A DNA stretch of 64,000 bases. It comes from a virus. The notes beneath the pieces are model-generated. The model saw nothing but the letters and a program-made list of their open reading frames with translations, did no database searches and was not told the origin of the DNA. Positions within the stretch are counted from its first letter, which is position 1; each line of letters begins with the position of its first letter. Both the position numbers and the translations under genes were made by a program. Shown here one piece after another: positions 25,159-41,127 of the stretch. The DNA lies in the IMG/VR virus record IMGVR_UViG_3300050821_017216, positions 55,900-119,899 of that record; one strand, written 5' to 3'.

Positions 25159-25334
25159 AGACGCGAACCATCTGCAAGCGCTGCCACCGCCTGCGCGAGG
25201 TCCTCGGCCAATACTGCGCGGCTTGTCAGGCCGACCTCCGCGCGATTGAGCAGCCCAAGCGCGCGCCTACTGGCGACCCGCCCCAAGCCTCGGGGGAGGA
25301 GACCGTGGACGACGATCTGCCGGTCGCGGGCTAG
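25155..25334 (+). CDS. Small Zn-finger protein
   Basis: CKRC..CAAC. Confidence 0.55.
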   Translation: MKTRTICKRCHRLREVLGQYCAACQADLRAIEQPKRAPTGDPPQASGEETVDDDLPVAG

Positions 25335-26842
25335 GCCGCGACGACCGTGATCTTCGAGTCGGTCGGGAACCAGTAGGCGTTCCCGCCGAACCCGGTGCCC
25401 GCGCCGACGGCGGCGTCGAGGTGCGCGAGCGTGATCGCGGTGGGGCCCACGAAGAGCCCGGTCGCTGGGTTGAACGCGAAGGCGTTGTCCTGGTTGGCGA
25501 TCTGGAAGAACGCCGCTGTCCCACCGTCGAAGACGAAGGTGGACGACGCGGTCCCGACGATGTGGATGTTCCCGCCCGCCCCCGAGCCTGCTCCCAAGCC
25601 TGCCAGCTTGAAGAGCGCGCCGCCGCTCGTCGTGCCGTAGCAGACACCTTCCCCGTCGAAGTACGCCCCGAAGTTCGTGGCGTCGGCGCCGAAGGCGAAC
25701 CCGATTGGTGTAGACGCCCCGCCGTCGAGGAAGCGTCCGAAGTTTCCGATGAAGCTCGATCCCGACGGGAGCGCGAAGTCCTCCCCGACGTCGACGGTGA
25801 ACGCGCCCAAGACCTGGAAGTCCTGATCGAGGAACGCCCCTCCGCCGCCGAGAAAGACCCCGCGGCGCGCGTACCCGCAGATCGCCCCAGACGCCGAGCC
25901 GACGTCGCCGCTGAACTTGTCGGCGGCGGGCGTTCCCGAGAAGGCGGGCGCTGCGCAGTTCGCGAAGATGACGCCGCCGTTGGTCTGACGCGCCTGGTCC
26001 GTGATGCACTCGACGAACATGACGAGCGCGCCCGCCGTGTCGTCGAGGTAACCGAGCGATCCGTTGACGGTGAGCGTGTCGGCGGATCCCTGCGAGACGC
26101 CGTGGCCCCTGCGCACGAGCACCGTCGCGACGCCGGAGCCGTTGCTCGTGCCCCGCCCGAGCGCGAACGTCCCGTTCGCTCCGAAGTAGACCTCGGGCAA
26201 GGTCAGGATCTCGTACGCGTCGCTCGCCCCCACCGCGGCGGCACCGAGGCCGTCCTCCGCCGTCGTGATCGCGAACGCGGGCGCGGTCGTCGACACCGCC
26301 CTCGACGCCGCGATCGTCCCCGGCGATCCACCGGTGACGACCCAGCTCGCCGCGCCGCTCGTCGTGTCGACGAGCAGCTGGTCGACGTCGGGCGTCCACG
26401 AGACGACGCCCGCGTCGGTGACGGTCTGCTGGCCGGTGGGCGTCCGCGCGAACGCGTTGGGGACTGTCGCGATGGTGCCCGATCGCTTGACGGTCGTCGT
26501 GCAGTCGATGACGAGCGAGCACCCCGGCTGCGCGTCGAGGTCCCAGAGCGCCGAGAGGGGGTCGGTGAAGTCCGGCGCGTCGCCCGCCACCGTGACCGTG
26601 ATGTCGATCGCTGGCAGCGTCGGCCGGACGCCGAGGAGCCCGCCGTCCCAGCGCCTGCGGACCTCACCAACCTGGGCGACGGCCGTCTCCGGGGTCTTGC
26701 CGTCGTTCGCGTTGTTCCCGGTGTCGTAGTTCACAAACCACGCGGTCTGATTCAGGAACGGCGTCGGGTTGAAGCTGCCGGTCTGGGGTGTGGACGGGTA
26801 GACCTCCGTCGCGTACCTACCCCGACCGATGACGCGACTCAT
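25331..26842 (-). CDS. Beta-rich spike/fibre-like protein with the IGRGR leader
   Basis: MSRVIGRGRYATEVYP, WFVNYDTGNNANDGKT, G/A/T-rich. Confidence 0.8.
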   Translation of the reverse strand: MSRVIGRGRYATEVYPSTPQTGSFNPTPFLNQTAWFVNYDTGNNANDGKTPETAVAQVGEVRRRWDGGLLGVRPTLPAIDITVTVAGDAPDFTDPLSALWDLDAQPGCSLVIDCTTTVKRSGTIATVPNAFARTPTGQQTVTDAGVVSWTPDVDQLLVDTTSGAASWVVTGGSPGTIAASRAVSTTAPAFAITTAEDGLGAAAVGASDAYEILTLPEVYFGANGTFALGRGTSNGSGVATVLVRRGHGVSQGSADTLTVNGSLGYLDDTAGALVMFVECITDQARQTNGGVIFANCAAPAFSGTPAADKFSGDVGSASGAICGYARRGVFLGGGGAFLDQDFQVLGAFTVDVGEDFALPSGSSFIGNFGRFLDGGASTPIGFAFGADATNFGAYFDGEGVCYGTTSGGALFKLAGLGAGSGAGGNIHIVGTASSTFVFDGGTAAFFQIANQDNAFAFNPATGLFVGPTAITLAHLDAAVGAGTGFGGNAYWFPTDSKITVVAA

Positions 26843-26848
26843 GGGTGG

Positions 26849-26877
26849 ATTCTATTGCAATGGTCGCGCATCCGCAA
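26849..26877 (-). promoter_or_regulatory. sigma70-like leaderless promoter
   Basis: TTGCGG-17 nt-TAGAAT, 6 nt before ATG 26842. Confidence 0.65.
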
Positions 26878-26898
26878 AGTGGTCACGTTGAACGTCTC

Positions 26899-27978
26899 TT
26901 ACTGCTCGATGGCCACGATGTTGGCCCCGTTCGTACCCACGGTGAAGGTCGCACCACCGTCGACGCTCGCCGTGATCGTGTAGGTGTGCGGCCCGTTGTC
27001 GGGCAGTATGTCGACGGCCATGATCGGGATGGCGACACGCAGGGCGCCTGCAGCGAGAGCCTGCGGCGGTTGCGCGATGATGACTCCCGCGTCACGCGAG
27101 ATGGTCACGGTCAGGTTGCAGGGAGCGCTCGCGACGCCCAGCACGTTGGCCTGGATGCTGACGATGCCGCTCTTCTGCCTCTGGATGCTCGTAGTGCTAG
27201 CGGTGACCGTCCCCGTCCCGGTGCCGGTGTTCGCATGACCCTGGACGATGCTGACGATCGGGTCCCAGGTCCAGGTCAACGCTCCGGTGAATCCAGGCTG
27301 CGTCGCACTGAAGACCGCTGCAGGGGAGTAGCTCGTGACCGCCACGGGTCCGGCACCGGACAGGGTTGACGCCTGGACCGACGCACGGTCGAACATGAGA
27401 ATGTCGACGTCGGCCCCGACGTCGGACTGGATGAACGGCGCTCCCGTCACGATGGTGTTGGCCTCGAACATGTGCAGGCCAAACTGGCCGCCGCTCTCGA
27501 CGTGGACGAAAGGTGCGGCGCCGACCTGGGCCTGGGCCTGCCCGTTGTACATGCGCAGCGCCGAGAGCTGCCCCGAAGCGACGACGATGGGTGACGACGT
27601 CGCCACCGACGAGAAGAAGATGCCGTCGTGGAGCTCGAGCTCGCGGAATGTGATGATGGCGCCCGGTTCGGCGAGGATCGTCTCGTTCGCGTTCGACGGG
27701 ATGCTGTTGTAGAACTTGAACTGGTCGAGATCCCACGGACCCCCGCTCGGGATGCTGCAGGGCGCCGCGGTCGAGTCGATCGCGACCCACTTGATCGCCG
27801 CGGGATCGAGCGTACTGGTGGCCGCGTAGAGGTCGGGGAAGTCCCCGAACACGTTTCGGCTCGCCTTTGCGTTCTGTCGCCACACGAAGGACGACGCCAC
27901 GTTGAACGGCGAGACGCCGAGCGGTTGCGTCGGGTACGTCTCCCGCGCGTGTCGACCGCGACCGATGAGGTGGCCCAC
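26899..27978 (-). CDS. Beta-rich structural-type protein with the IGRGR leader
   Basis: MGHLIGRGRHARETYP. Confidence 0.8.
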   Translation of the reverse strand: MGHLIGRGRHARETYPTQPLGVSPFNVASSFVWRQNAKASRNVFGDFPDLYAATSTLDPAAIKWVAIDSTAAPCSIPSGGPWDLDQFKFYNSIPSNANETILAEPGAIITFRELELHDGIFFSSVATSSPIVVASGQLSALRMYNGQAQAQVGAAPFVHVESGGQFGLHMFEANTIVTGAPFIQSDVGADVDILMFDRASVQASTLSGAGPVAVTSYSPAAVFSATQPGFTGALTWTWDPIVSIVQGHANTGTGTGTVTASTTSIQRQKSGIVSIQANVLGVASAPCNLTVTISRDAGVIIAQPPQALAAGALRVAIPIMAVDILPDNGPHTYTITASVDGGATFTVGTNGANIVAIEQ

Positions 27979-28017
27979 GCAGGAGAGCGTACCACGGAGC
28001 CGCGATCAGGCGGCTAA

Positions 28018-28683
28018 CTACTCGATTCCGGTCACCTCGTGGGCGTCGCTCCCGGACACGAAGGCGCTCGGGTCCTTCAGCGCGATCCGCCGGAGCGCGG
28101 CCCGGCGCCTGGCTAGCTGCCTGCCGTACTTGCACGACCCGCTCGCGACCTCAGCGAGCTGCTCGTCCTCGGGCAGCTTCGCGCAGTCCCGGCGCGCTTG
28201 CGCGGCGGCCGCGAGCCAGATGGGAGCGGCCTTCTCCGGGATCCGGGCGACCTCCGGCGTCGCGTACCGCGCCGAGAGCTGCCACGGGCCGTGACTCTTC
28301 CCACTATCTCCCACCGCGGAGAGGCGGAGGTTGCTCTCGAAGACGCTGTAGACGACGAGGTCGCCCGCCTCGTCGCGGGTCGTCGCGGTCCGCGCGATGG
28401 CCGAGGCTATGCGGTTGGCCTGCCCGACCCGGTCCCAGCGGTAGTGGTCTTTGCCGAGCTCGCGGCTCGGGAGCCGCCGCATCATCGCGAGCACGTCGTC
28501 GGTCGTGAGCGAGGTGGGGAGGTCCGTCGGGATCGTGGAGTCGTCCGGCTTTGACGCATCGTGGCGGTCCGGCGACGCCAGCGCGGCTTCGACGCCGGCA
28601 GGTTGGGTCTGCGCGCTCGAGTCGCGCAGCGCGAGCAGCGCCGTCACCAGGACCAGGAAGCTGAGGGCTGTTTTCATGCCCAC
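28018..28683 (-). CDS. Secreted lysozyme-like / lytic transglycosylase-like protein
   Basis: Signal peptide, FESNLRLSAVGDSGKSHGPWQL (catalytic-Glu and GxxQ pattern). Confidence 0.65.
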   Translation of the reverse strand: MGMKTALSFLVLVTALLALRDSSAQTQPAGVEAALASPDRHDASKPDDSTIPTDLPTSLTTDDVLAMMRRLPSRELGKDHYRWDRVGQANRIASAIARTATTRDEAGDLVVYSVFESNLRLSAVGDSGKSHGPWQLSARYATPEVARIPEKAAPIWLAAAAQARRDCAKLPEDEQLAEVASGSCKYGRQLARRRAALRRIALKDPSAFVSGSDAHEVTGIE

Positions 28684-28832
28684 GTTCTACTCGCGGATTA
28701 CCCGGACGCTCAAGACCCCATTCGCTCTGGTGCAGAACGGTCTTGACTTCTACCCGACGTCGGTGCGTCACCGTGGCCGGACACGTGGTGGCGGCGGGCG
28801 CGAGCGGGTAGAGTCTGCCACGGGAGGCCACC

Positions 28833-29123
28833 GTGTCGGACGTACCCCTCGCTGACACGTGCGTGTGCGGGGTCCCCTACTGGCACCGGTTCATGGGCCC
28901 GGCGGACGCGCCGACCACCGCCGCCGGTTCCGGGACGACGGGCGCGGCGACGCGTTTCCTCTGGTGCAGGAAGTGCGGCTCGGTCCGCGTCATCTTTGAG
29001 GCGCGCTGGCAGATCCCGCTCGACCGCGCCGGGGAGATCGCGCGAAGCGTGCCGCTCGACGGCGACGACGAGGAGAAGCCCACCAACCCGGGCACGCCGC
29101 GGGCGAAGAAGGGTGACGACTGA
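28833..29123 (+). CDS. Zn-finger-like protein
   Basis: GGGAGG RBS, CVCG..CRKCG. Confidence 0.6.
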   Translation: MSDVPLADTCVCGVPYWHRFMGPADAPTTAAGSGTTGAATRFLWCRKCGSVRVIFEARWQIPLDRAGEIARSVPLDGDDEEKPTNPGTPRAKKGDD

Positions 29124-29130
29124 CGGCGCC

Positions 29131-29757
29131 TCAGTAGTCGTCGGTCGGTCGCTGCGCGTACTGCCAGAGCTCCGAGAACTTCGGCCGGACCCACTGGTTC
29201 AGGTTGATCGAGAAGTCCTCCGCGAGCCCGTTGACCCGCACGAGTTGGATGACGTCGTCGAAGTCGCGCGGCCGGTCGGGCGCCGTCATGCCGCTCGCCA
29301 ACTTCAGCTCGATGAGGTGGGTCAGGTCTACGGTCTGCAGGTCGCCGATCGCGATCGACGCGTCCTCGGGGTCAGGAAACCGCACCGGCTTCGGCAAGCC
29401 GTCACCCGGGTAGGCGCCGGTGAGCAGGACGTCGATCTTCACGCCGTTGCGCACGTCGCGCATGTTCTTGGAACCAGGGTAGCGCTCCACCCAGCCGCGA
29501 CCGAGCCAGCGCTCCTTGAACCGCTTGAGGCCGTCCTCGGTCAGGAGGACGTCGACGTCCGAGGTCGTCCGCTGGTGCCCGTGCAGCAGCACCGCCATCG
29601 CGCCGGCGATGGCGTACGGGATCCCGGCTTCGTCGAGCGCCGCCGCGAGGTCGACGGCCGCTCGCTGGACCCTGGACTCGCCCATGAAGAAACGCTCCGC
29701 CTCTGCGAGGCTCGCGAGACCGCGGGATCGCGGAGTCCGGGTCTCGTCGAGCCGCAT
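29131..29757 (-). CDS. Minimal nucleotidyltransferase-family protein
   Basis: YAIAGAMAVLLHGHQRTTSDVD, TAGGAT 7 nt before ATG 29757. Confidence 0.8.
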   Translation of the reverse strand: MRLDETRTPRSRGLASLAEAERFFMGESRVQRAAVDLAAALDEAGIPYAIAGAMAVLLHGHQRTTSDVDVLLTEDGLKRFKERWLGRGWVERYPGSKNMRDVRNGVKIDVLLTGAYPGDGLPKPVRFPDPEDASIAIGDLQTVDLTHLIELKLASGMTAPDRPRDFDDVIQLVRVNGLAEDFSINLNQWVRPKFSELWQYAQRPTDDY

Positions 29758-29794
29758 GGCCGCTATCCTAGCCCCGCAGTGGGTGGAGGTCCAC

Positions 29795-29823
29795 TTGCGG
29801 ATCGCACGATCGCGCGGTACGTT
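29795..29823 (+). promoter_or_regulatory. sigma70-like leaderless promoter
   Basis: TTGCGG-17 nt-TACGTT, 7 nt before ATG 29831. Confidence 0.65.
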
Positions 29824-29830
29824 GCGCCAG

Positions 29831-30001
29831 ATGTCACGTTCCAGACAAAGCGTCAAACCGCTGACGCTCACGCTCTTCCGGTCACAGCCGGGCGAGTACC
29901 TGCGCGCGGTGGCGCGCGAGGGGAAGCGCTTCGTGCTGACGAAGTCGGGCAAGCCCGTCGCGCTCCTCGTCCCGGTCGACACGCCAAACGGGGTCGACTG
30001 A
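29831..30001 (+). CDS. Phd/YefM-like antitoxin domain
   Basis: FRSQPGEYLRAVAREGKRFVLTKSGKPVALLVP. Confidence 0.7.
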   Translation: MSRSRQSVKPLTLTLFRSQPGEYLRAVAREGKRFVLTKSGKPVALLVPVDTPNGVD

Positions 30002-30267
30002 TGCCCGAGCGCGTCGCTAAGGGTCCGGTGAAGCGGCACCGTCACCACCCCATCATCTGGATGGTCGAGTGGCTGCGCGGCAACGAGGTGCGCTTCTTCT
30101 TCTCCACCGGGCGCATCGTCGAACTGGAACTCCCGGTCGCGTCCGCCAAGAAGGCGAAGGTCGTCGACAAGGGTCTAGGGCTCGACCCGGGTGACGGGAT
30201 GGACCTGTGCGCCGTCGAGCTGCACAAGCGGCGCGGCAAGGTCTGGGCCCGCGGGCACTGGACCTGA
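30001..30267 (+). CDS. Small protein, possibly DUF2442-like
   Basis: TGATG coupling, VRFFFSTGRIVELEL..GLGLDPGDGMDL. Confidence 0.5.
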   Translation: MPERVAKGPVKRHRHHPIIWMVEWLRGNEVRFFFSTGRIVELELPVASAKKAKVVDKGLGLDPGDGMDLCAVELHKRRGKVWARGHWT

Positions 30268-30273
30268 TCGCGC

Positions 30274-30483
30274 TCAGAGGATCGCGTCGTCGGCCGCGTC
30301 GTCGTACGCGCGCACGCGCCGACCGGACTCGGTTACCCACCACACCTCCTCGCCCGTCTCGTCGGGCGCCCAGTAGCCGTACCCGTGGGCCAGCGCCCAG
30401 GTGAACGCCTCGTGCGAGCACGGCTCGCCCGGTTCGCCGATCTCCTGGAGGACGGCGCGCTGGTCCGGTGTCAGTCGTTGCAT
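30274..30483 (-). CDS. Small hypothetical protein
   Basis: 69 aa, GC3-biased. Confidence 0.55.
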   Translation of the reverse strand: MQRLTPDQRAVLQEIGEPGEPCSHEAFTWALAHGYGYWAPDETGEEVWWVTESGRRVRAYDDAADDAIL

Positions 30484-30489
30484 GCTCTC

Positions 30490-31110
30490 TTACAGACCAA
30501 CTATCGTTTCAGCCGGAATGACGCTGTTAGATGGTACTTCTATACGCTCTACGCGAAATCCGTGCAGCGCAGCGATACCATTCTTCTTTTCATCGCGAAG
30601 AATTTGTTCTTTTTTGCGATGGTACGGGCCGTCAAACTCGACCAGTATGCGACTGTCTAATAGTGCCAAGTCAAACACGACACCGTCCAGCTCGTACTCG
30701 AACTCGTGTGGCCTTTCGCCAATCACCATCACCACTTCCACATACTTACGGGCCTCCCTACGCTTCAAGGCTTCAGCAGGCACTATCAGGTTGGGGATCA
30801 TCATCACGCCGATGCGGTGTAGTTTCTCCTTCGTTTCCGGAGATAACCTCGCGTACTTGCGAGCACATCCTCGCGAGCAGTGGTCTGATGACCGTTTTCT
30901 TCCGGATGACCAAAAGAATTTACCGCATGGGCACACCTTGGGTACTTCTGGCCCTCTCCGCGCCAACGCGTTGCATCTGAGGTTACAGTAGATCGGTCGC
31001 CCAAGCTTGACAGACCGGCGAAACTCTCGCGCGTCCCTGATGACTGTCTGTCCGCAGTGGTTACACGGAACGTGGATTTGGCTCACTATGACTCGAATCA
31101 ATGGGTCCAA
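30490..31110 (-). mobile_element. Free-standing DUF559/Vsr-like putative homing endonuclease with CxxC repeats
   Basis: Low-GC insert, FDLALLDSRILVEFDGPYH..RDEKKN. Start uncertain. Confidence 0.7.
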
Positions 31111-31128
31111 TATCGGACCATCCTAGTT

Positions 31129-31431
31129 TTACCCGAAAAACTGCTCGCGTGTCATCCCGTGGAACCGCTCGTAGTGCGCGGCCCACTCCTCCTCCTCCGC
31201 GCGGGTCATCGATCCGCAGCCGCGACACCCGTTCCAGACGCGCGCCGGGCAGCACTCGAAGGTGTGCTCCCAGCAGCAACAGCCGCAGTGGGCCACCTCG
31301 TCGAGCGTGTCGACGTCACCTTCCCATAGCGCGCGCTCGAGAATGCGGACGAACTCGTCGAGTGGGTGGCCGGCGTGCAAGGCCCACTCGCGGACCAGGT
31401 CGTCGTCGTACTCGGTCAGGAGATCCAGCAC
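31129..31431 (-). CDS. Cys-rich hypothetical protein
   Basis: CGCCCWEHTFECCPAR. Confidence 0.65.
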   Translation of the reverse strand: MLDLLTEYDDDLVREWALHAGHPLDEFVRILERALWEGDVDTLDEVAHCGCCCWEHTFECCPARVWNGCRGCGSMTRAEEEEWAAHYERFHGMTREQFFG

Positions 31432-31603
31432 CTCAGACCTCGCACGTGCAGACGTACCCGCACGACCAGCACTCGAGCCACCACCAGACCTCGGCGGCCA
31501 TCCGAGACGTCCTCGCCGCGCGCGTGCGCGAGCGACGCGAAGGACACCGGCGCCGGTCGCGCGCAGCAGGCGCGTACGCGGCAGACCCGCCAGGCGCGCC
31601 GGA

Positions 31604-31852
31604 TCACCAGCCTAGCTCCCGCGCGTACGCCCGCAGCGACGGCTCGAACCGTCCGACCAGCGTCCGCGCCGGTGTCGTGGTCTGCCGCCCGCACCACGGG
31701 CAGCTCCCGTCCCGGGCGAGCAGGGACGCTCGCTCGCGGGTCAGCAGGTTGTCCCAGCCGCGCGCGGTCCGGTTGCCGCACGGTCCGATCACGGTCTCGG
31801 CCTTCTTGCGGCAGCACGGGCAGCGACCGCCGCCCCACTCGTACTCGCTCAT
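31604..31852 (-). CDS. Zn-finger-like protein
   Basis: CPCC, CPWCG. Confidence 0.55.
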   Translation of the reverse strand: MSEYEWGGGRCPCCRKKAETVIGPCGNRTARGWDNLLTRERASLLARDGSCPWCGRQTTTPARTLVGRFEPSLRAYARELGW

Positions 31853-31976
31853 GCCCGAGGCACCATCGCAAGAGCGCGGCCAACCGCACGCTCTAGCGAA
31901 TCCGAGCAGTTACTACCGGCTACCACCGGTCGCCGAGGGAAGGAAGTTTCTCCTTTCGGAAGAAACGTTCTGGAGC

Positions 31977-32105
31977 TCAGGGGATGAGGTGGGTGAGGTA
32001 CGTCAGCGCGCACCGCCAGAGCGGCTTGCCTCGCCCGCGCGCACCGCGCCAGTAGACGAGCGCGTAGCGGTGTCGCGCGTGCCAGGAACCGCCGCCGAAG
32101 TCCAT
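31977..32105 (-). CDS. Small hypothetical protein
   Basis: ATG at 32105 overlaps the relic stop (TGATG). Confidence 0.4.
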   Translation of the reverse strand: MDFGGGSWHARHRYALVYWRGARGRGKPLWRCALTYLTHLIP

Positions 32106-32220
32106 CAGAACGTCGCCACTCCTGCGCCGCTCCAGTTGTACGCAGACCCGCCGAAGCCTGCGGCGCCGCAGGCCGCGTCGAGGTGGGCGGGCGTCGTCGT
32201 GATGCCGGTGTGGGGTTCCA
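32105..32220 (-). pseudogene. Orphan C-terminal relic of a spike/fibre paralogue
   Basis: EPHTGITTTPAHLDAACGAAGFGGSAYNWSGAGVATF matches the end of the 25331 protein (ITLAHLDAAVGAGTGFGGNAYWF). Confidence 0.7.
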
Positions 32221-33909
32221 CTAAGGCGCCACCGCTCCAGAGTTGCAATACGCACCACCACCGCCCGGGTTGAATATGCAACCGTTTGGAATGGTCGTGC
32301 CGAGCACTGTATCTAGGTTCGATGCAGTTACAGCGCTGTTGCAAGCCGTGATGCCGCCTGCCGCCGCCGGGTTGCCTATACACCCAACGGTGAGGTTGTT
32401 CTCTTTGATGGTCACGCCACCCGCGCCAAAGGCAGCCGCAGCAGCTCCGGCTCCTGTCGGATAGATCGTCTTGCCTACGGTGTTGTAAGTCCCGGTCCCC
32501 CACAACCTGACCGAGCCTGGGATTCTAGGTAAGGTGAGATTTGCTTTCCAGTCTGCGTTCACCGTTACGTTTGAGTCGATGAAGACCGCACCCATGCTCG
32601 GGCTGTAAAGTGCGTATTGGAACGCCGTACCGCCCATGTTCCCGAAGATCACATCACCGTCAAAAAATGTGTAGTCGGCGATGACATTGAAGCCACCAGA
32701 TCCGACACCGACGATACCACCGATGATCCCGATCGGCTCCGTGTCAAGAGTGATCCCAGACCCTGGAGTAAGCGCGTAGTTCGTCATCGCTCCGGAGAAG
32801 TCGTTGTTCAACCAGACCTGGAACGTCCTAGTCCAGTACCGTTCAACAGTAACGAGTCGAGACGACTGGACGTTTGTATAAACGAGCCCTTGCCCTGTTC
32901 CGCCAACGGTACTAGCGTCACGATTCAATGTCCCACCGCTGATTCGTAGGTTGGACACGGACGATACTGCGGTTGAGATAGATCCGAGCATCGTTGGTGA
33001 GAAGGCTACCAAGTTGATGGAGACTGGACTGTAAACGGTCACGGCGTCTGCGCCGATTGTGACCTCAGTCCCGAAACCGAGAGCGGTGCCAAGCGTATAG
33101 CTAGCGGCGGACGACAGCGGCGTGGACGTGAAGTAGGCCGGCGCTGCGCCATTCACCTCGTACGTCCAGAACCCAGACGGGTTCGTGCTGTCGACGACCA
33201 GATCGTTGACGGCCGCCGCGCAGGGGAGGGTTACCTTGGTGAGTGTGTTCGTGCCAACGACGAAGTTGGTCACCGCGGACAAGTTTCCGGTACACACCTG
33301 CTGCGCGGCTCCAAGAGATCCTGTAACCGCTATCCATGCGTTGGACTCCAACGCCGGGTACAACGCCACCGGGTCGGTGCTACCAGGTTGGCTGCTGGTA
33401 AACGTGATCGTGGTGTTCTGCTGGAGACGCGGGCACAAGACCGGGTTTCCGAGGCAACCCCAGCGGTGAACGTTGATCTCTTGCCAAGTCAGGCAAGCGG
33501 TCGACGTCGTGACGCAATCGTTTGAATCGCTCGCGGTACCTGATGCGTTCGCCGGATCGACTATCCATTTCGGTACCGTCCAGCTCGCGGGGATGATCGG
33601 CGTCGACGCGCCCGAAGCCATGAACGTCGCCGGCTTCTTGCCGCTGCACCGCCACTCGCCCGACGGCGATGTGCAGGCCGCCACGACGATCTGGGCCTGC
33701 GTCCGCGTGTCCTTCGGCGCAGGCATGACGATGCTGGACCGCGGCACGCGGAGGAGCACTCGCGACGTCGCGGGCGGCGGATCCAGCTCGGCGATGGGTG
33801 CGGACGCGACTTCAGTGGGTGCCGGTGAGGCCTCGGGCTGCGCCGGAGCGTCACGGCACCCGGCGAGCACAAGGAGGGTGAGGGCGGCGGCGCGTAAGGT
33901 CATGTTCAT
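32221..33909 (-). CDS. Lipoprotein with a beta-rich spike-like body, paralogue A
   Basis: Lipobox LVLAGC, IIPASWTVPKWIVDPAN, low-GC distal two-thirds. Confidence 0.85.
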   Translation of the reverse strand: MNMTLRAAALTLLVLAGCRDAPAQPEASPAPTEVASAPIAELDPPPATSRVLLRVPRSSIVMPAPKDTRTQAQIVVAACTSPSGEWRCSGKKPATFMASGASTPIIPASWTVPKWIVDPANASGTASDSNDCVTTSTACLTWQEINVHRWGCLGNPVLCPRLQQNTTITFTSSQPGSTDPVALYPALESNAWIAVTGSLGAAQQVCTGNLSAVTNFVVGTNTLTKVTLPCAAAVNDLVVDSTNPSGFWTYEVNGAAPAYFTSTPLSSAASYTLGTALGFGTEVTIGADAVTVYSPVSINLVAFSPTMLGSISTAVSSVSNLRISGGTLNRDASTVGGTGQGLVYTNVQSSRLVTVERYWTRTFQVWLNNDFSGAMTNYALTPGSGITLDTEPIGIIGGIVGVGSGGFNVIADYTFFDGDVIFGNMGGTAFQYALYSPSMGAVFIDSNVTVNADWKANLTLPRIPGSVRLWGTGTYNTVGKTIYPTGAGAAAAAFGAGGVTIKENNLTVGCIGNPAAAGGITACNSAVTASNLDTVLGTTIPNGCIFNPGGGGAYCNSGAVAP

Positions 33910-33923
33910 GGGTCAACCAACCT

Positions 33924-35561
33924 TCAATTGGCGTTGCAGAAACGAGCACCCGTAGCTGGATCCTGAAGGCCGTTGTCGGTGTCGAGGTTCGCAGCTGACA
34001 GCGTGATACCGTCCGTCCACACCCCGGCGCTGTACTTGCTGCCCGTAGTAGCTGCACCGAGCTTCAACGTGCCCGAGGTGAGTAAAGTGGCAGCGAAGCT
34101 CGCTCCGGTGTTTCTAACGAAGGCAGACCCTGGGGCGACGGTAACGGGTATGGATCCCCATAGAGCCGCGGTCGCGCCAGTGCTGGTTGTAATCTGATAG
34201 ACGGCGCCGGTCTGGATGAGCAAGTTGCTCCCGTCGCTGAAGACGGCGGACCATTGATGTTGGGCCGCCTCCATGGTGATACCACCGTGCACAACGACAT
34301 CTCCGTCGACTGTCGTCGTCCCGTAGAGCGTCATCGTTCCGCGCAGGATGCCTCCGTAGACGGTGGCGGTCCCCGACAAGACCGCAAACGAGCCTGACAC
34401 GTCGCACCCGATAGCTGTCGCTGCGTTTCCTCGGCCGTTGACGGAAGCCATCTGAAGTCGTGGTGCGACAGCGCACGCTGACAGTACGCTGGTGGCGGAG
34501 TCGGACACCGACGCAAACTCCGATGCGGCCGAACCGGACGAGTCCGCGATCTGAAGGAACTGCATCCACCCTGCGGACGGAGCGCCGCTTCCTACATCAC
34601 CACCCTTGGGTCTCCAGACCTTCAGGTTCGAGATCGGCAAGCTCCACACCGTGAACGCGTCGCCCGTCGACATGACCCCCTCTGCCAATGAAGGGATACC
34701 TACGGTTGTGATGAGGGAGTTGGGGAGAGGTTGACTGATCGTCGCCGTGCCGGTCGTGATGGAGTCGATGAACGCCCACGTGTTCGCGGTCGTGTCTTGG
34801 AGCAGCATCTTGGCCGCCGCCCCCACGCACATGTTGGAGACAGCCCAGCGCGTACCCGGACCGCCGCGGACCTGGGCCGTGACCGTCGCCGTGCTCACCG
34901 GGATCGTACAGACGCTCGTGAGGCTGCCGAGGAGGACCGCCTGCGCCCCGTTCGGCAGGTACGGCTCGAAGAAGATGTAGTCCGTGTTGAGCATCTGCGC
35001 GGACAGCTGGTGGAACGTCGTCGACTGCTGGAGCTGGGGGTTACTCTGCCCGAGCCGGTGGGCCTCGATCTCGCCCCACGTCGCGACGGGCCCGACGCCG
35101 CCCGTGCATACGCTCCCCGAGCACCCGCCCGTGCAGGTGGCCGCCGTGCCGCTGTTCGTGTCGGAGGCGCAGCCGATGGAGTTTGCGGGGTCGAAGTACC
35201 AGTTGGGGACCGTCCACGAGCTCGGGATGACCGGCGCTGACGCTGCGGACGCCTTGGGCTGCGGGATCGCGCAGCGCCACTTCTTGTCCGCGCCGAGGCA
35301 CGCGGCGGCGGCCAGCGCAGCGGGCGACCGCGCGTCCTTGCTCGCGACCGTCGGGCGCGCCGTCGACGCCGCCCACTCCGCGGGCGTGAAGTCGCCGTGC
35401 ACGAGCCCCGTCTCGGGGACGGTCTGGGCGGGTGCGGGCGGCGGGACCGTCGTCGGCGCGGCGTCGACGCGTCCCGCGTCCGGGGTGGACGAGGAGCCGT
35501 CGCACCCGAAGAGCGCGAGGAGACAGAGCCCGACTACCGCTACGTGTCGCTGCAGCATCAC
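33924..35561 (-). CDS. Lipoprotein with a beta-rich spike-like body, paralogue B
   Basis: Lipobox LALFGC, VIPSSWTVPNWYFDPAN, low-GC distal half. Confidence 0.85.
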   Translation of the reverse strand: MMLQRHVAVVGLCLLALFGCDGSSSTPDAGRVDAAPTTVPPPAPAQTVPETGLVHGDFTPAEWAASTARPTVASKDARSPAALAAAACLGADKKWRCAIPQPKASAASAPVIPSSWTVPNWYFDPANSIGCASDTNSGTAATCTGGCSGSVCTGGVGPVATWGEIEAHRLGQSNPQLQQSTTFHQLSAQMLNTDYIFFEPYLPNGAQAVLLGSLTSVCTIPVSTATVTAQVRGGPGTRWAVSNMCVGAAAKMLLQDTTANTWAFIDSITTGTATISQPLPNSLITTVGIPSLAEGVMSTGDAFTVWSLPISNLKVWRPKGGDVGSGAPSAGWMQFLQIADSSGSAASEFASVSDSATSVLSACAVAPRLQMASVNGRGNAATAIGCDVSGSFAVLSGTATVYGGILRGTMTLYGTTTVDGDVVVHGGITMEAAQHQWSAVFSDGSNLLIQTGAVYQITTSTGATAALWGSIPVTVAPGSAFVRNTGASFAATLLTSGTLKLGAATTGSKYSAGVWTDGITLSAANLDTDNGLQDPATGARFCNAN

Positions 35562-35980
35562 ACGATCTCCTTCCAGGTCGGGTTCCCGCCGATCGACCCG
35601 ACGTACATCCAGGTCGCGTTCTGGCCCTGGCCGGCCAGGCTCGTCGTCCCGCTAGGCGCGGTGAAGTTGCCGGGGTTGCCCGGCTCCTCCACCACGAACC
35701 CGCCCGTCGCGGTGACGAGCACGGGGTTCGTGACCGACGCGCCGAGCAGGCTCACGGTCACCTGGTCGCCGACCATGACCCCGCCGCCGGACGGGAGGTC
35801 GACGGTCGCCTGCGCGCCCGGCGTGGCCACCGTGACGACGTTCCAGCGCGCGGCGGCGAGCACCGTCGTGCTGCCGGCGGCGGCGTTGGTCACTATCACC
35901 CCTATCGCGCCGGGCGCGACCAGCGCGCGCTCCGGGTACGACTCGCGGGTGTATCGCCCTTTACCCATCAGGTAGCTCAT
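35558..35980 (-). CDS. Small fibre-module protein with the IGRGR-type leader
   Basis: MSYLMGKGRYTRESYP, ATG at 35980 after GAGGAAAACCACC. Confidence 0.75.
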   Translation of the reverse strand: MSYLMGKGRYTRESYPERALVAPGAIGVIVTNAAAGSTTVLAAARWNVVTVATPGAQATVDLPSGGGVMVGDQVTVSLLGASVTNPVLVTATGGFVVEEPGNPGNFTAPSGTTSLAGQGQNATWMYVGSIGGNPTWKEIV

Positions 35981-35993
35981 GGTGGTTTTCCTC

Positions 35994-36638
35994 TCAGGTC
36001 GCGTTGCGCATCCAGAACGGTCGGCCGCCGAGTCGGTCGGCGGTCGCGAAGTTGACGTCCACGAGAGTGCCCGCGATGAGCACGTCCTCGGCGATCTGCC
36101 GCATCGCGTACCCGCGCGTCTGGACGTCGGGCACGTCCGACAGGCTGCGCCAGTAGCAGGGGGCGATGAGGCTCGTGAAGAGCTGCCCACCCGTGAGCGG
36201 CACGTCGTCGCCGATGTACTCGCCCGGCGGTCGTTGCGCCGCTTTGAGCCGGGCCGCCTTCGCGTTCGCGTACGCGATGGTCGCCACGTCACTCCCGCCG
36301 ATCCCCTCGAGATCATCCCACGCGCTCGCGCCGACGAGGTAGCCGGCGGCGCTCGCCTTGGCGACGAAGACCGCAGCGTCGGCGGTCCCGAGCGCGGCCG
36401 ACGGGATCCACCCAGGGTCGCGCACGCGCTGGTAGACCATCAGACCGAGGCCGGCCGCCATGAAGTCGGCGACCTCTCGCGCGGTGAGGTCGCTCGGGTC
36501 CGGCGCGCCGTCGCAGGTGACGGTGCGGATGCCGCCCTGGAACCCCACGACGCGGAGCGCGAGGAGCGTCGCGAGCGTGCACGGCGCGTCCGTGTCGAAG
36601 AGGAGCGCGTCGGGGACGGGTTCGACGATCGGGTTCAC
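35994..36638 (-). CDS. DUF1906/Rv2525c-like glycoside hydrolase (candidate endolysin)
   Basis: FDTD..LTAREVADFMAAGLGLMVYQ..GTADA..DLEG..Y. Confidence 0.7.
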   Translation of the reverse strand: MNPIVEPVPDALLFDTDAPCTLATLLALRVVGFQGGIRTVTCDGAPDPSDLTAREVADFMAAGLGLMVYQRVRDPGWIPSAALGTADAAVFVAKASAAGYLVGASAWDDLEGIGGSDVATIAYANAKAARLKAAQRPPGEYIGDDVPLTGGQLFTSLIAPCYWRSLSDVPDVQTRGYAMRQIAEDVLIAGTLVDVNFATADRLGGRPFWMRNAT

Positions 36639-36645
36639 TGGTGCC

Positions 36646-37374
36646 TCATGGCTGCGTTAGCGTCGCGCTCCAGCAGAGGAGCGTCACGTCGGCGGTCGTG
36701 TTCGGCCAGACACCGAAGCCTACGTTTGATGGCAGGTTGGCGAAGATGCCGCCGATCGGGGTGGGAGGCTCGCTGAAGAGCCACGAGACGCCGTCGACGG
36801 AGTACGACACTGAGAAGTTCGTCCCGTCGTACTCCGCGCGCAGGAGCGTCGGCGCGCCCGGCGTGATGTAGGCGAAGAGAGCGTCCGCGATGGGTGTCGT
36901 CGGACTGCTGAGGATGGTCTCCGCGCCACCCGCGAAGAACCCGTTCGCGGTCTTCGACGCGGTGGCCCCCGTCGTGAAGATGTGCCCGCTCACTGGGTCG
37001 CGCACCTCGATCCCGGTGAAAGGACCGCCGGTGTTCGTCGCGCCGAACGAGAACCCAGCCGTGAGCCCCAGCGTGAACGTCCACGGGTCGGCCGGCGTCT
37101 CGATCGAGATCTCCTGCGCCTGCCAGGCCGTGACGCCGGCCGGCGCCAGGATCAGCACGCCGCCGTCGCCTGACGGTCCGACGTCCGTGAAAGTGGGGGC
37201 GGTCGCCTGGCTGCCCTGTCGGGTGAAGTTGAGCGGCGTCCAGTCGGCGGCGACCGGCGGCGGGGTCCGCGTGAAGAACGGCCCGAACGGCCAGCCCGCG
37301 CCGCCGCCCGAATTGCTGGGCGCGCTCGGGTACGTCTCGCTCGCATAGCGCCCTCGGCCGATGACGCGGCTCAC
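36646..37374 (-). CDS. ConA-like beta-sandwich protein with the IGRGR leader
   Basis: VSRVIGRGRYASETYP, LLRAEYDGTNFSVSYSVDGVSW. Confidence 0.75.
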   Translation of the reverse strand: MSRVIGRGRYASETYPSAPSNSGGGAGWPFGPFFTRTPPPVAADWTPLNFTRQGSQATAPTFTDVGPSGDGGVLILAPAGVTAWQAQEISIETPADPWTFTLGLTAGFSFGATNTGGPFTGIEVRDPVSGHIFTTGATASKTANGFFAGGAETILSSPTTPIADALFAYITPGAPTLLRAEYDGTNFSVSYSVDGVSWLFSEPPTPIGGIFANLPSNVGFGVWPNTTADVTLLCWSATLTQP

Positions 37375-37586
37375 GACGGTTTCTCGGTATCGGACCGGTT
37401 CTTCGCGATGGCGCTCGCGACGCCCTGCCCGATCCCGAGCGCGGCGGCGCCTCCTAGAAAGACGCCGGTGATGTTCTGGATGACGCCGGCCGCCGTCGGT
37501 CCGTCGACCTTGCCGCTCAGGGCGAGGACCATGACGCAGGTGAGGCCGATCGCGCCGGCCACGCACTTCACGACGAGTGTGTTCAT
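37371..37586 (-). CDS. Two-helix membrane protein, holin-like
   Basis: 71 aa, two hydrophobic segments, charged C-terminus, close to the DUF1906 gene. Confidence 0.55.
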   Translation of the reverse strand: MNTLVVKCVAGAIGLTCVMVLALSGKVDGPTAAGVIQNITGVFLGGAAALGIGQGVASAIAKNRSDTEKPS

Positions 37587-37687
37587 GTCAAATCCCTCGC
37601 GCCAAGGTCCATGTTACGCGTGCGCCACGTAGTGGAATCTATCTTGCTTTCACCCTCGGCTCATTCGATTTCAATCGGTAGCCGTAG

Positions 37688-37718
37688 TCGGCATACTCCG
37701 GTATTCCCTGAGTAATAC
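37688..37718 (-). promoter_or_regulatory. Dispersed non-coding motif, copy 1
   Basis: GTATTACTCAGGGAATACCGGAGTATGCCGA on the minus strand. Confidence 0.7.
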
Positions 37719-37829
37719 CCAGTATCGACCCATTCGCTGCGGACACGATCGGGGTCGAAGATGGCGAGGCACGCGGAGGTGTCGTTCACGCCGAAACTCG
37801 CAACGATCCTGCAGCCATCCACTGAGTGA

Positions 37830-37857
37830 TTGACAACGGGTGACGGTGAGCTACCAT
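37830..37857 (+). promoter_or_regulatory. sigma70-like leaderless promoter
   Basis: TTGACA-16 nt-TACCAT, 7 nt before ATG 37865. Confidence 0.75.
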
Positions 37858-37864
37858 CTGAGTC

Positions 37865-38461
37865 ATGGAGAAGATCGCGTCGCTCGTCCTCGTCCTGTCG
37901 GTGGGGTGCGGCGGAGCCCCATTCACCGAAGCCGACCCCGCGCAGGGCGACGACGCGGGGCTGCGCGTCTCGGTGGACTCTCCGTCCGCTGACCCGGACG
38001 CGGGAGCCGTGGTCGGCGACGACGGAGACGCCGCGCGCGCGGTCGCGACACCGCCCGACGCGGGTGCGGGTGACGTAGACGCGAGCGGCACCGACGACGC
38101 GGCCGTCGTCGCCTCTGGCGACGCGAGCGACGTCGACTCTGCCCCCGCGTGCACTGGCGGGCAGGTGCGCTGCGCGAACAGCTCGCAGACACAGGTGTGC
38201 GGCCCGGACGGAGCGTGGCAGACCCCCGTCGACTGCGTCGACCAGACGTGCGCGTCAGGCGCCTGCGTCGGCATGTGCCAAGCCGGGCCGACCGCGTGCA
38301 AGACGGTGTCGGGCGTCGCTCAGACGCAGGTGTGCGACTCCACGGGGACATTGCAGGTCACCGAGTGCCCGGCGTGCGAGTACGGGTACGCGCCGTGCTG
38401 CGTCGAGAACAGCACCGACTGCGGGTGCCCTACCGCCGGCAACGCATCGTTCTGCTTGTGA
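37865..38461 (+). CDS. Myxobacterial-style Cys-rich lipoprotein (moron-like)
   Basis: LSVGC lipobox, DAG/DAS linker, CxxxxxxC repeats, opposite strand to neighbours. Confidence 0.75.
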   Translation: MEKIASLVLVLSVGCGGAPFTEADPAQGDDAGLRVSVDSPSADPDAGAVVGDDGDAARAVATPPDAGAGDVDASGTDDAAVVASGDASDVDSAPACTGGQVRCANSSQTQVCGPDGAWQTPVDCVDQTCASGACVGMCQAGPTACKTVSGVAQTQVCDSTGTLQVTECPACEYGYAPCCVENSTDCGCPTAGNASFCL

Positions 38462-38473
38462 ACGTGGAGGCGC

Positions 38474-38719
38474 TCAGTCCCCGATCGGGGTGATGTTGCG
38501 CAGGGAGATGGCGTGGATGCGCGAGCGAGAGCCGTTCGACCACCCGCTGTACTGCGGGTCGTAGTGCGGCGACAGGCTACTGTTGTTGACGTGCACGTTG
38601 TGGTTGTTGTGGTGCTCGCGGTAGACAGCGAGGTCGACGAGCGTCCGAGGGTGTCCAGACCCGTTGCCGTTCTGTTCACCCCCCGATTTCGCTTTCAGTG
38701 TCGTCAAACGGCGGCGCAT
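38474..38719 (-). CDS. Small Asn/His-rich hypothetical protein
   Basis: ATG at 38719, 81 aa. Confidence 0.45.
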   Translation of the reverse strand: MRRRLTTLKAKSGGEQNGNGSGHPRTLVDLAVYREHHNNHNVHVNNSSLSPHYDPQYSGWSNGSRSRIHAISLRNITPIGD

Positions 38720-38762
38720 GGTCTTGGTCCTTTCAGGTCGACAACTCGAGCGTACCAGATCT

Positions 38763-39038
38763 CTACTCGAGCGGCTCGCCGAGTAGCTGGATGAAGACCG
38801 CGTCGGCCAGCTGCGCGAGGAAGCTCGTCGCGCAGCCGACGACGAGGGCGTCGACGATCGGGCCGCGCCCGAAGGGCGCAAGCCCAAGCCCGCCCGCGGC
38901 GATCCCCACCCAGAAGCCAGTGCACTGACTGCAGTGCAGGAGCGCGGGCCAGAGCTTGCGGACCGGCCGGAAGATCGTCCCGCGCACGACGATGAGGGTC
39001 GCGCCGACGAGTGCTGCGAGTAAGAGGAAGGGCGTCAC
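38763..39038 (-). CDS. DUF1360-like membrane protein
   Basis: IFRPVR..LLHCSQCTGFWVG, three hydrophobic segments. Confidence 0.65.
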   Translation of the reverse strand: MTPFLLLAALVGATLIVVRGTIFRPVRKLWPALLHCSQCTGFWVGIAAGGLGLAPFGRGPIVDALVVGCATSFLAQLADAVFIQLLGEPLE

Positions 39039-39039
39039 C

Positions 39040-40269
39040 TCAGGTCAGTCCGCCGCCGCCGCCGGTCATGACCCAGTGGGTGCCGTTGTAGCGCACCTCG
39101 AAGTAGCCGCGGTTCGCCGAGGCGAGTGTACCGATCGTCGCTCCCGTGTCGTCCTCGAACGTCAGGTGGAAGCCGTTCGCGTCGGTCACGGTGCGCACGA
39201 CTCGCATCGTGTCGCCCACCTTCTCGCCACCGCCCAGCAGGAATTGGATGACGTGGTTCCCCGTGATGGCGGTGTTCTGGAAGTAGACGTTGCCACCGCC
39301 CGCCCACGCACCTGCTCCCGTCCCGTTCTCCGATAGCGTCGCGGCGACGTCCCCGATATTCGCGCCCTGGACAGGGCCGCCGTCGTACCCGCCCACGACC
39401 GTGACGATGAGACCCACCACGGTCCCGCCGGCACTGAGGAAGTTGCGCCAGGAGACGCCGTCGAACTGCGCGAAGGCGCCGGCCGGTCCGGTCAAGACCG
39501 GAGAATTGGCGAAGGCACACGAGGAGAACGCCGCCGAGGAACTGCCGGCCGTCCCGCCGACCGTGATGTTGTTGCCGAAGGTCGAAAAGACCCCGATGAT
39601 GGACTTTGCGTGGATCGCCCCCCCAACCCCTCCGACGGAGAGGGCCAGCTGGGCCGACGTCGTCCCGGTGCCGAGGTTGACCGCGCCGCTCCAGACGAGA
39701 CCACTGATCTCGAACGCCGCGAGCGCGGTGGCGCCCGTCGCGGTGATGGTCCCCGTGCCGACGACGCTCAGCAGGAACTCGTCGGCGGTGAGCGCGAACG
39801 TGCTCGGGACCGAGCCGTCGTCGGTGATCGTGATGTTGCCGACCAGGTTGATGTTGTGCAGGGTCGCCGTCGCGAGTGGCGACGGTGGGTGTGTGCCAGC
39901 ACCCGCCTCGTTGACCCAGGTGACGTTGCCGGTGATCGTCTGCGGCTGACCGTCCGACCGGAGCTCGGTGTTGCGGTACGGCGGGATCGCGAGCGGCTCC
40001 GCGTACCCAGCCTGCGAGGGGGTGACCTTGCCGACGACGAGCGCGTTGGCGTCGGCGACGCTCGACGAGGTCGCGAAGGCCGCGAGGAACTGGCTGGCCG
40101 TCTTGTACGGCTCCGCGACCGACCCGTCGAGCCCACCCTGCACCGTCCCCCCGTCGATGAACCGGTACCGGGTGAGCGGCACGATGCTGGCGCCCGACCC
40201 ACCTCCGGCACCCGGCGACTGCGGGTAGGTCTCGCGCGCAGTCCTGTTTCGGCCGATGAGATATCCCAT
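39040..40269 (-). CDS. Beta-helix-like structural protein with the IGRGR-type leader
   Basis: MGYLIGRNRTARETYP, DGSVAEPYKT. Confidence 0.8.
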   Translation of the reverse strand: MGYLIGRNRTARETYPQSPGAGGGSGASIVPLTRYRFIDGGTVQGGLDGSVAEPYKTASQFLAAFATSSSVADANALVVGKVTPSQAGYAEPLAIPPYRNTELRSDGQPQTITGNVTWVNEAGAGTHPPSPLATATLHNINLVGNITITDDGSVPSTFALTADEFLLSVVGTGTITATGATALAAFEISGLVWSGAVNLGTGTTSAQLALSVGGVGGAIHAKSIIGVFSTFGNNITVGGTAGSSSAAFSSCAFANSPVLTGPAGAFAQFDGVSWRNFLSAGGTVVGLIVTVVGGYDGGPVQGANIGDVAATLSENGTGAGAWAGGGNVYFQNTAITGNHVIQFLLGGGEKVGDTMRVVRTVTDANGFHLTFEDDTGATIGTLASANRGYFEVRYNGTHWVMTGGGGGLT

Positions 40270-40930: not shown

Positions 40931-41127
40931 GGCTTCACCTCGCCGGCGAGGAGCGCCGCCAAGCGCTTCGCGACCTCGGGCCGCAGCTTGATGGTGCCGA
41001 CCGAGCCACCCTCGGTGTCGTCGTCGGTCAGCTCCGCGGAGCCGTCCGCGAAGACGCGGACGGTGGGGCAGCACTTTTTGTAGGAACACATCAGGACTTC
41101 CTCGTGGACCTTACGCAGCTGCGTCAT
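40927..41127 (-). CDS. Small hypothetical protein
   Basis: ATG at 41127 after GGAGG. Confidence 0.6.
   Translation of the reverse strand: MTQLRKVHEEVLMCSYKKCCPTVRVFADGSAELTDDDTEGGSVGTIKLRPEVAKRLAALLAGEVKP

Follow-up and report, generated by a model that had tools for sequence, protein, structure and literature searches.

A 16-residue N-terminal tag shared by unrelated fibre-like proteins of an uncultured soil virus lineage: a probable docking peptide for exchangeable receptor-binding fibres

Five genes of an uncultured soil virus (IMG/VR record IMGVR_UViG_3300050821_017216, 119,899 bp in total), all located on the minus strand of the final 64 kb of the record (hereinafter, the window, to which all coordinates refer unless another contig is named), encode proteins that start with a common 16-residue peptide, M-x-x-[VL]-[IM]-G-[RK]-[GN]-R-x-x-x-E-x-Y-P, which we denote the tag (Table 1). 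The strict N-terminal position of the tag, selection at the protein level, the many unrelated bodies that follow it, the predicted disordered linker and the optional collagen-like stalks found in related viruses jointly suggest that it is, probably, a docking peptide for exchangeable receptor-binding fibres.

A common peptide at the start of otherwise dissimilar proteins

The first-pass annotation of the window had described a common leader on five unrelated proteins, and all five N-termini are as claimed. A degenerate DNA pattern back-translated from the tag matches the window five times, compared to 0.00 matches in 100 dinucleotide-preserving shuffles, and a six-frame regular-expression scan of the window and of the whole 119,899-bp genome found no sixth copy. 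For g35980 and g37374, the longest open reading frame (ORF) begins upstream of the tag; we chose the tag start in both cases because the tag occupies residue 1 in related viruses and because a Shine-Dalgarno-like sequence (GAGAA or GAGGAAA) is located upstream. When the five gene starts are aligned, synonymous differences are seen within the peptide, and the upstream DNA is unrelated except for the Shine-Dalgarno-like GAGAA. Outside the tag, no significant sequence similarity links the five proteins to one another, and none of them matched a Pfam or PHROG family. The tag motif itself was not found in Pfam or PHROG models, in deposited phage genomes or in the literature searched, in agreement with the earlier remark that it was not recognised from any named family. 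In particular, tblastn searches of 50,697 deposited phage genomes with the 20-residue tag, g40269 and a 439-aa protein encoded in the structural block of the window gave no real match. Among sequencing runs, the stretch is present only in the probable source soil metagenome, and no RNA dataset was listed with it.

Distribution in related viruses and metagenomes

A scan of IMG/VR with the tag DNA pattern yielded 29 loci on about 18 real viral contigs (31-125 kb), each locus at the start of an ORF, with up to four exact copies on a contig. The tagged contigs represent one lineage: the 439-aa protein is 71-83% identical in 9 of the 10 records searched. Seven relatives were taken in full, and every gene of the window was mapped onto them; with a hidden Markov model of the tag, we found 4-6 tagged genes per near-complete relative genome, and all 48 tags of the relatives are located at an ORF start. 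Two records (G010 and G011) contain tagged genes and lack the capsid block discussed below; both are 'linear' records, probably fragments, and we draw no inference from them. Another relative (G006) is labelled a provirus in IMG/VR.

A search with a motif profile, of the kind that the first-pass annotation had proposed for viral metagenomes, extended this pattern considerably. A 30-column profile of 47 tags, compared with 1.84 billion representative proteins at E <= 0.001, matched 255 clusters; in the best 150 of these, which include proteins of 27 to 1082 aa, the match begins at residue 1-3 without exception. After removal of the first 30 residues, the 134 bodies of at least 80 residues from the same best 150 clusters fall into 66 BLAST components, 44 of which are singletons. 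At least five consecutive G-X-Y triplets are present in 17 representative bodies.

A scan of genome contigs found three real tags, all within contigs of metagenome-assembled genomes (MAGs) with inconsistent taxonomy, from which the host cannot be inferred. One tagged MAG contig (L099; CAWDGI010000003.1, a 1.55-Mb contig with a Parachlamydiales MAG label) carries a 192-aa tagged gene in a region of 61% GC that also encodes a homologue of a 572-aa P-loop protein of the analysed virus; this contig is either an integrated relative or an assembly or binning chimera.

Conservation of the tag and level of selection

The family consensus is M1 S2 H/R/Y3 I/V4 I5 G6 R7 G8 R9 Y10 A11 R12 E13 T14 Y15 P16 (MSHIIGRGRYARETYP), with R9, Y15 and P16 invariant and G6 and G8 almost so. 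Other residues (S, A, G, L, D or W) are found at the Glu13 position in 13 of 146 representative tags and in 7 of the 48 tags of the relatives. In the set of 48 distinct genes, all six Arg codons are used for Arg9, and all four available codons occur at each of Gly6, Gly8 and Pro16; the mean entropy at codon positions 1, 2 and 3 of the tag is 0.69, 0.40 and 1.40, respectively. Given this codon usage, the nearly free third positions and the unrelated 25 nt located 5' of the tagged genes, we conclude that selection acts on the peptide, not on the DNA or RNA.

The tag is followed by the flexible linker rich in Gly, Pro and Ser that had been noted previously: in 149 representatives, residues 17-30 comprise 25% G, 15% A, 11% P and 11% S, and in AlphaFold2 models the predicted local distance difference test score (pLDDT) is below 50 for residues 1-31 of g40269 and for residues 1 to about 25 of g35980. 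The tag and the Gly-rich linker are thus predicted to be disordered. With regard to Sec, Tat and lipoprotein signal features, the hydrophobic stretch within the tag never exceeds 2-3 residues and there is no Cys; a secretion signal was ruled out because the tag has no hydrophobic core.

Bodies of the tagged proteins

The g40269 protein is the core member of the set, with orthologues in five of the seven relatives (34-38% identity) and 20 further homologues. Its AlphaFold2 model, built with 27 homologues (pLDDT 87, predicted template modelling score (pTM) 0.83), shows a right-handed parallel β-helix after the disordered residues 1-31. Foldseek alone gave weak matches; in an exhaustive structural comparison, the best match is the tail fibre of Agrobacterium phage 7-7-1 (9rkv_M; Z 17.3, root-mean-square deviation 3.3 Å, 226 residues aligned), followed by PL6 lyases and many tailspikes with Z of 13-16. 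Among the β-rich fold labels that had been assigned to the bodies from the sequence, the β-helix of g40269 is the one that this prediction bears out.

The minimal tagged protein, g35980, with homologues in two of the seven relatives, gave a model of moderate quality (pLDDT 65, pTM 0.60, 7 sequences). It matches, in order, the baseplate chain 9f4a_Le of Klebsiella phage KP1 (Z 11.9), residues 54-176 of TSP4 of phage CBA120 (Z 11.5 and 11.1), the Pa223 capsid spike (Z 9.5), CpaA (6o38; Z 8.4) and StcE (4dny; Z 7.1), with the next matches, that is, the background, at Z of about 4. As judged from the predicted structure, these matches are the XD1 fold set known from TSP4, T4 gp9 and T4 gp10 (PMC8825819).

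The other three tagged proteins of the window have no homologue in the seven relatives, the capsid-block proteins of which show 56-70% identity on average. For g37374, to which a ConA-like fold had been ascribed from the sequence, a single homologue (49% identity) was found among 5.8 billion proteins, and the ESM Atlas weakly suggests a C-terminal domain of the SO2946-like type. For g27978, there is one tagged homologue among the representatives (P0146, 58% identity), and for g26842 there are two (P0060, 39% identity, and P0139, 32% identity). In the first of these, one and the same chain bears a g35980-like module between its tag and a body similar to that of g26842. A possible homology between the g26842 body and two lipoproteins encoded nearby was rejected at the sequence level: the BLAST E-value of 2e-6 rose to 0.026 after composition correction, and the hhalign probability was 0.07.

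Fibre architecture and an exchangeable leader

The layout of the tagged proteins is most apparent in the relatives. In contigs L072 and L007, a 1194-aa protein consists of the tag, about 800 residues of uninterrupted G-X-Y repeats and a g40269-type head; in G003, a collagen-repeat stretch of about 85 residues separates the tag from a head that shows 69% identity to g35980. Overall, 11 of the 48 tagged proteins of the relatives match Pfam Collagen (PF01391), and the PHROG 'tail fibre' families are matched by tagged proteins of relatives through these repeats; no G-X-Y repeats are present in the five tagged proteins of the window. Because the collagen stalks stand between the tag and the same heads, the tag marks the end opposite the head, and we infer that it is placed at the virion-proximal end of trimeric fibres, given that tagged proteins with collagen repeats must be trimers. 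As a triple helix, a stretch of about 800 residues would give a fibre approximately 0.2 micrometre long.

Six g40269 orthologues lack the tag, and several of these start with another leader (xxADARYKxLRAL...) and then continue with the Gly-rich linker and the body known from g40269. The metagenome contig L068 contains two tandem genes of the g40269 family, both of which begin with MNQNRSVADARYKKLRALIG ahead of the same linker; this leader is probably helical, and a 160-aa gene upstream opens with a vaguely similar helix. As far as the sequences go, the occurrence of an alternative leader before the same body indicates that the N-terminal module can be swapped, and the L068 leader is possibly an orthogonal 'address' system of a sister lineage. 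No homologues of the small proteins p66, p91 and p81 (see below) were detectable in the 9.8-kb L068 contig, a single divergent fragment from which nothing is concluded. With P0013, which carries the alternative leader, as the query, no related loci were found in IMG/VR, and the back-translated pattern of this leader gave one match there, by chance.

Gene neighbourhood and kind of virus

The core conserved across the seven relatives consists of a block at 45.9-60.5 kb and a small cluster at 38.4-42.4 kb. The block encodes GroES-like, RadC/JAB, LysM-plus-transmembrane (TM), transglutaminase-like and 1205-aa proteins, along with proteins of 439, 199, 301 and 286 aa. In the relatives, the genes are arranged in the order putative capsid block, p66, tagged gene(s), p91, p81, further tagged genes. 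The p66, p91 and p81 proteins belong to no known family; p66 is a candidate partner or assembly factor of the tagged proteins, and the hydrophobic segments of p91 correspond to residues 1-24 and 60-83. Maturation of virion proteins as a protease and degradation of the wall are both conceivable roles for the transglutaminase-like protein (Pfam E 7.5e-5; 71% mean identity across the relatives) and for the RadC-like JAB protein (E 9e-23).

In the window, the tagged genes are interleaved with several other genes. The two lipoproteins are paralogous (27% identity over 587 aa, E 1e-36), the one next to g35980 is start/stop-coupled to it, and a role in superinfection exclusion or in the cell envelope is possible for the pair. 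The 71-aa holin-like protein and the 214-aa glycoside-hydrolase-like protein form a lysis-like pair; the latter has a counterpart with 62% identity in the MAG contig L102, where the synteny is preserved. A homing-endonuclease-like gene of the HNH/AP2 type, present in three of the seven relatives, is located inside the cluster of fibre and small core genes.

Table 1. Tagged genes and other features discussed in the text (positions in the window, or in the contig named)
Feature	Position	Strand	Start codon; N-terminus (translation)	Description
g40269	39040..40269	minus	ATG at 40269; MGYLIGRNRTARETYP	409 aa; tag at residues 1-16 (nt 40222-40269), Gly-rich linker to about residue 31, then predicted right-handed parallel β-helix
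g37374	36646..37374	minus	GTG at 37374; VSRVIGRGRYASETYP	242 aa; tag at nt 37327-37374; start overlaps stop of the 71-aa gene
g35980	35558..35980	minus	ATG at 35980; MSYLMGKGRYTRESYP	140 aa; tag at nt 35933-35980; tag plus a single predicted XD1-like β-sandwich
g27978	26899..27978	minus	GTG at 27978; VGHLIGRGRHARETYP	359 aa; tag at nt 27931-27978; body β-rich by composition
g26842	25331..26842	minus	ATG at 26842; MSRVIGRGRYATEVYP	503 aa; tag at nt 26795-26842
p66	40927..41127	minus		Small, Cys-rich; just upstream of tagged genes; 7 of 7 relatives, 55-69% identity
p91	38763..39038	minus		Two TM helices; directly downstream of g40269; 7 of 7 relatives, 52-69% identity
p81	38474..38719	minus		Basic, His/Asn-rich; downstream of p91; 7 of 7 relatives, 42-72% identity
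Lipoprotein	32221-33909	minus		About 545-560 aa; lipobox LAGC; between tagged genes
Lipoprotein	33924-35561	minus		About 545-560 aa; lipobox LFGC; between tagged genes
71-aa protein	37371-37586			Two hydrophobic (TM) helices, holin-like; stop overlaps GTG start of g37374
214-aa protein	35994-36638			Rv2525c-like glycoside-hydrolase domain, sub-threshold (E 1.1e-5, 26.1 bits, cut-off 27.2)
Transglutaminase-like (papain-fold) protein and RadC-like JAB protein	51818-52489 and 46943-47626			
439-aa protein	56701-58020			Structural block
HNH/AP2-type homing-endonuclease-like gene	41366-41878	plus		
UvrD/SF1 helicase gene	435-2903			Split by an intein
1194-aa collagen-stalked tagged protein	L072:8966-12550 and L007:6140-9721			Tag, G-X-Y repeats, g40269-type head
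Tandem g40269-family genes	L068:890-3466		MNQNRSVADARYKKLRALIG (both)	Alternative leader

When the 112 proteins of at least 95 aa encoded in the whole genome were compared with Pfam and PHROGs, the top families represented replication, repair, methylation, toxin-antitoxin and CRISPR functions, and no terminase, portal, HK97 capsid or tail family was among them. The virus is, probably, tailless. Profiles of the 439-, 199- and 301-aa proteins of the capsid block gave no match to PDB sequences, and the ESM Atlas entry of the 439-aa protein is uninformative. In the remainder of the genome, the UvrD/SF1 helicase gene is split by an intein (Intein_splicing, residues 252-541) with a DUF559/MTES_1575 endonuclease domain; three relatives (G003, G004 and G010) match only the helicase parts of this gene.

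Function of the tag: docking and the alternatives

Under the interpretation that we favour, a tagged protein would consist of the tag, a flexible Gly/Ala/Pro/Ser linker, an optional collagen-like triple-helical stalk and a distal head. The heads would probably be trimeric, such that a conserved acceptor on the particle would receive the three proximal tags, and 4-6 different, quickly exchanged host-recognition heads per genome would be mounted on one invariant particle. Along with the features of the tag itself and the replaceable N-terminal module of the g40269 orthologues, the predicted tailspike and tail-fibre folds of the g40269 and g35980 heads are compatible with this scheme, as is the distribution of the tagged genes, which resembles that of receptor-binding proteins (one core tagged gene, the others hypervariable, 4-6 per genome). 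The location of these genes in the relatives, just downstream of the conserved putative capsid block and after p66, points in the same direction, and the adenovirus fibre tail and the KP32 peptide described below might serve as precedents by analogy. The first-pass annotation had suggested a universal docking peptide that carries interchangeable modules; position, selection, the approximately 66 or more kinds of bodies and the stalks all argue for that suggestion, with binding to the virion as its conjectural part.

Several considerations weigh against docking. The presence of the tagged proteins in the virion and their binding to the particle are what we infer from the above, and the trimer is deduced solely from the collagen repeats and the analogy of folds. 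Because lysis-like genes and the two lipoprotein genes lie among the tagged genes, some of the tagged proteins could act outside the virion. The tailless state is based on the negative family scan; in a tailed virus, the acceptor would belong to the tail. Prediction of complexes between the tag (30 aa, 47-row alignment) and the 439-, 199- and 301-aa proteins gave a score of 0.02 against a mark of 0.32, which speaks neither for nor against docking.

Among the alternatives, the one that fares best, although we regard it as unlikely, is that the tag is recognised by an assembly factor, such as a chaperone, a catalyst of trimerisation or a modifying enzyme, with attachment mediated by another part of the protein. 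Candidates for such a factor are at hand, namely p66, p91 and p81, which always flank the tagged genes, and the conserved transglutaminase-like Cys enzyme within the structural block, and phage fibres often need dedicated chaperones. Fibre chaperones, however, mostly act on C-terminal regions; furthermore, g35980 consists of the tag and one head domain only, leaving no other part for attachment, and the position of the collagen stalks places the tag opposite the head.

The tagged proteins might also not be virion components at all but released or envelope-directed adhesins or depolymerases, whose tag, being basic and aromatic, would bind a host structure such as the membrane, the cell wall or exopolysaccharide. 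The interleaving with the holin-like, glycoside-hydrolase-like and lipoprotein genes would fit such a role. We consider it very unlikely: the absence of a hydrophobic core shows that the tag is not a Sec, Tat or lipoprotein signal, the tagged genes of the relatives directly follow the putative capsid block, the lineage has one tagged gene in its core, and the stalk-and-head layout is typical of virion fibres.

Fainter still is the prospect of a propeptide or, as raised in the first-pass annotation, a cleavable sorting signal; the cut would be made after A-x-E by a virus-encoded maturation protease, in the manner in which T4 gp21 and phiKZ gp175 remove targeting peptides. Most tags contain A-R-E, candidate proteases (transglutaminase-like, RadC/JAB) are encoded, and the motif [AVT]-x-E-[AS]-[RK] is enriched in neighbouring 'cargo' proteins: 11 of its 23 genome-wide occurrences are in five 'cargo/core' proteins (15285-21248 and 52968-56585), including the 1205-aa protein. 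The claim that the leader holds an [AT]-x-E site like those of the cargo linkers did not withstand closer comparison, however. The variability of Glu13 noted above shows that the presumed P1 residue is not invariant, the tag reads A-R-E-T-Y-P, with an invariant Tyr at P2' and Pro, unlike the [AS]-[RK] of the enriched motif, and none of the five tagged proteins of the window contains the full motif. Moreover, conservation extends three residues beyond the supposed cut, and the passengers are fibres of the external type (collagen stalks, tailspike folds) as opposed to internal cargo packaged in the head. The enriched motif, a feature distinct from the tag, would fit a linker or protease site that recurs in the 'cargo/core' proteins. 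Finally, conservation at the DNA or RNA level (a recombination hot spot, a translation-initiation element or a shared regulatory site) would make sense in that common 5' ends would help cassette exchange, but it is largely refuted by the codon statistics and the unrelated upstream sequences and is hardly tenable.

Comparison with known attachment systems

The N-terminal tail motif of the adenovirus fibre, FNPVYPY, binds the cleft between penton-base monomers (PMC8156859). Like this tail, the tag is a short, apparently extended, conserved N-terminal peptide ahead of a variable-length shaft and a distal head, in what would here also be a trimer; the adenovirus tail is likewise common to several fibre types (HAdV-F40/41 have two fibre genes), and both peptides have an aromatic-Pro core, VYPY in adenovirus and T/V-Y-P in the tag. 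The differences are substantial as well: FNPVYPY is absent from the tag, with only Y-P in common, and the host is a bacterium; where there is a shaft, it is collagen-like, whereas that of adenovirus is a β-spiral; and there are 4-6 fibre genes per genome, with a hypothetical acceptor.

Among bacteriophages, the first 29 residues of RBP2 of Klebsiella phage KP32 are necessary for incorporation and sufficient to mount foreign enzymatic domains, among them an endosialidase, on the virion (PMC13352976), and the conserved peptide of the KP32, K11 and KP34 RBP2 proteins docks on the T4gp10-like branching domain of RBP1 (PMC13352976, PMC6872550). The tag is similar to this peptide in being N-terminal, no longer than 30 residues and present on unrelated bodies (66 groups in our case), including a tailspike-type β-helix. 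The KP32 peptide is an experimentally portable docking module; for the tag, the same function is only proposed. The KP32-type systems differ in that they belong to podoviruses with one peptide-bearing protein each and a known acceptor of the XD2/XD3 type, and their sequences are unrelated to the tag; here every fibre is tagged, the core one included. No XD2/XD3 domain was seen in the two modelled bodies (g40269 and g35980), only the XD1-like sandwich of g35980.

A collagen-like stretch is also found in the spike protein P5 of the tailless, membrane-containing phage PRD1, in which an N-terminal base is followed by a short collagen-like shaft and a C-terminal knob, the whole located on the penton P31. 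The tagged proteins with stalks share with P5 the N-terminal attachment region, the G-X-Y stretch and the distal head, along with the probable tailless context. P5 attaches via a folded N-terminal domain that resembles the penton protein, unlike the 16-residue peptide described here; there is one such fibre in PRD1, and no sequence similarity is involved.

With the branched tailspike complexes of Ackermannviridae (TSP1-4 of phage CBA120), the analysed virus shares the XD1 fold (in the predicted structure of g35980) and, in what is a conjecture here, several different spikes per particle (PMC8825819); the anchor of these proteins is a folded triple β-helix of about 80 residues, not a short peptide (PMC8825819). 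The role ascribed to XD1 is that of a spacer or a glycan binder, not of a docking surface (PMC8825819). We considered docking of the tag on a g35980-type domain and downgraded it because the fold is XD1 and not XD2/XD3.

Implications

The kind of device proposed here is known; the novelty is in the motif, in the lineage, in a single tag being common to all fibres of the virus and in the probably tailless setting. One can further speculate that the tag serves as a general-purpose plug for an acceptor present in many copies on a large bacterial virus, tailless and membrane-containing, with a mosaic coat of 4-6 fibre types, some relatives being 'hairy' with collagen fibres of about 0.2 micrometre like the fibrils of giant viruses, and that the ADARYKKLRAL-type leader of the sister lineage is orthogonal, such that leader and acceptor act as lineage address codes preventing the mixing of fibres in co-infection; taken as a whole, this picture is rather doubtful.

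Almost no structural gene of the tagged lineage has a named family, and the 16-residue profile flags the host-recognition proteins of these uncultured soil viruses of 74-125 kb. By the first 16 residues, at least 255 clusters, whose heads comprise dozens of unrelated kinds, can be retrieved from metagenomes. If the tag is portable like the KP32 peptide, it would be a natural plug-and-play connector, and the sister lineage in which a different leader precedes the same body is a natural experiment that may lead to the acceptor via co-variation. The tag thus gives a handle on host range, on the exchange of receptor-binding modules and on the biology of the vertex and of attachment in this lineage.

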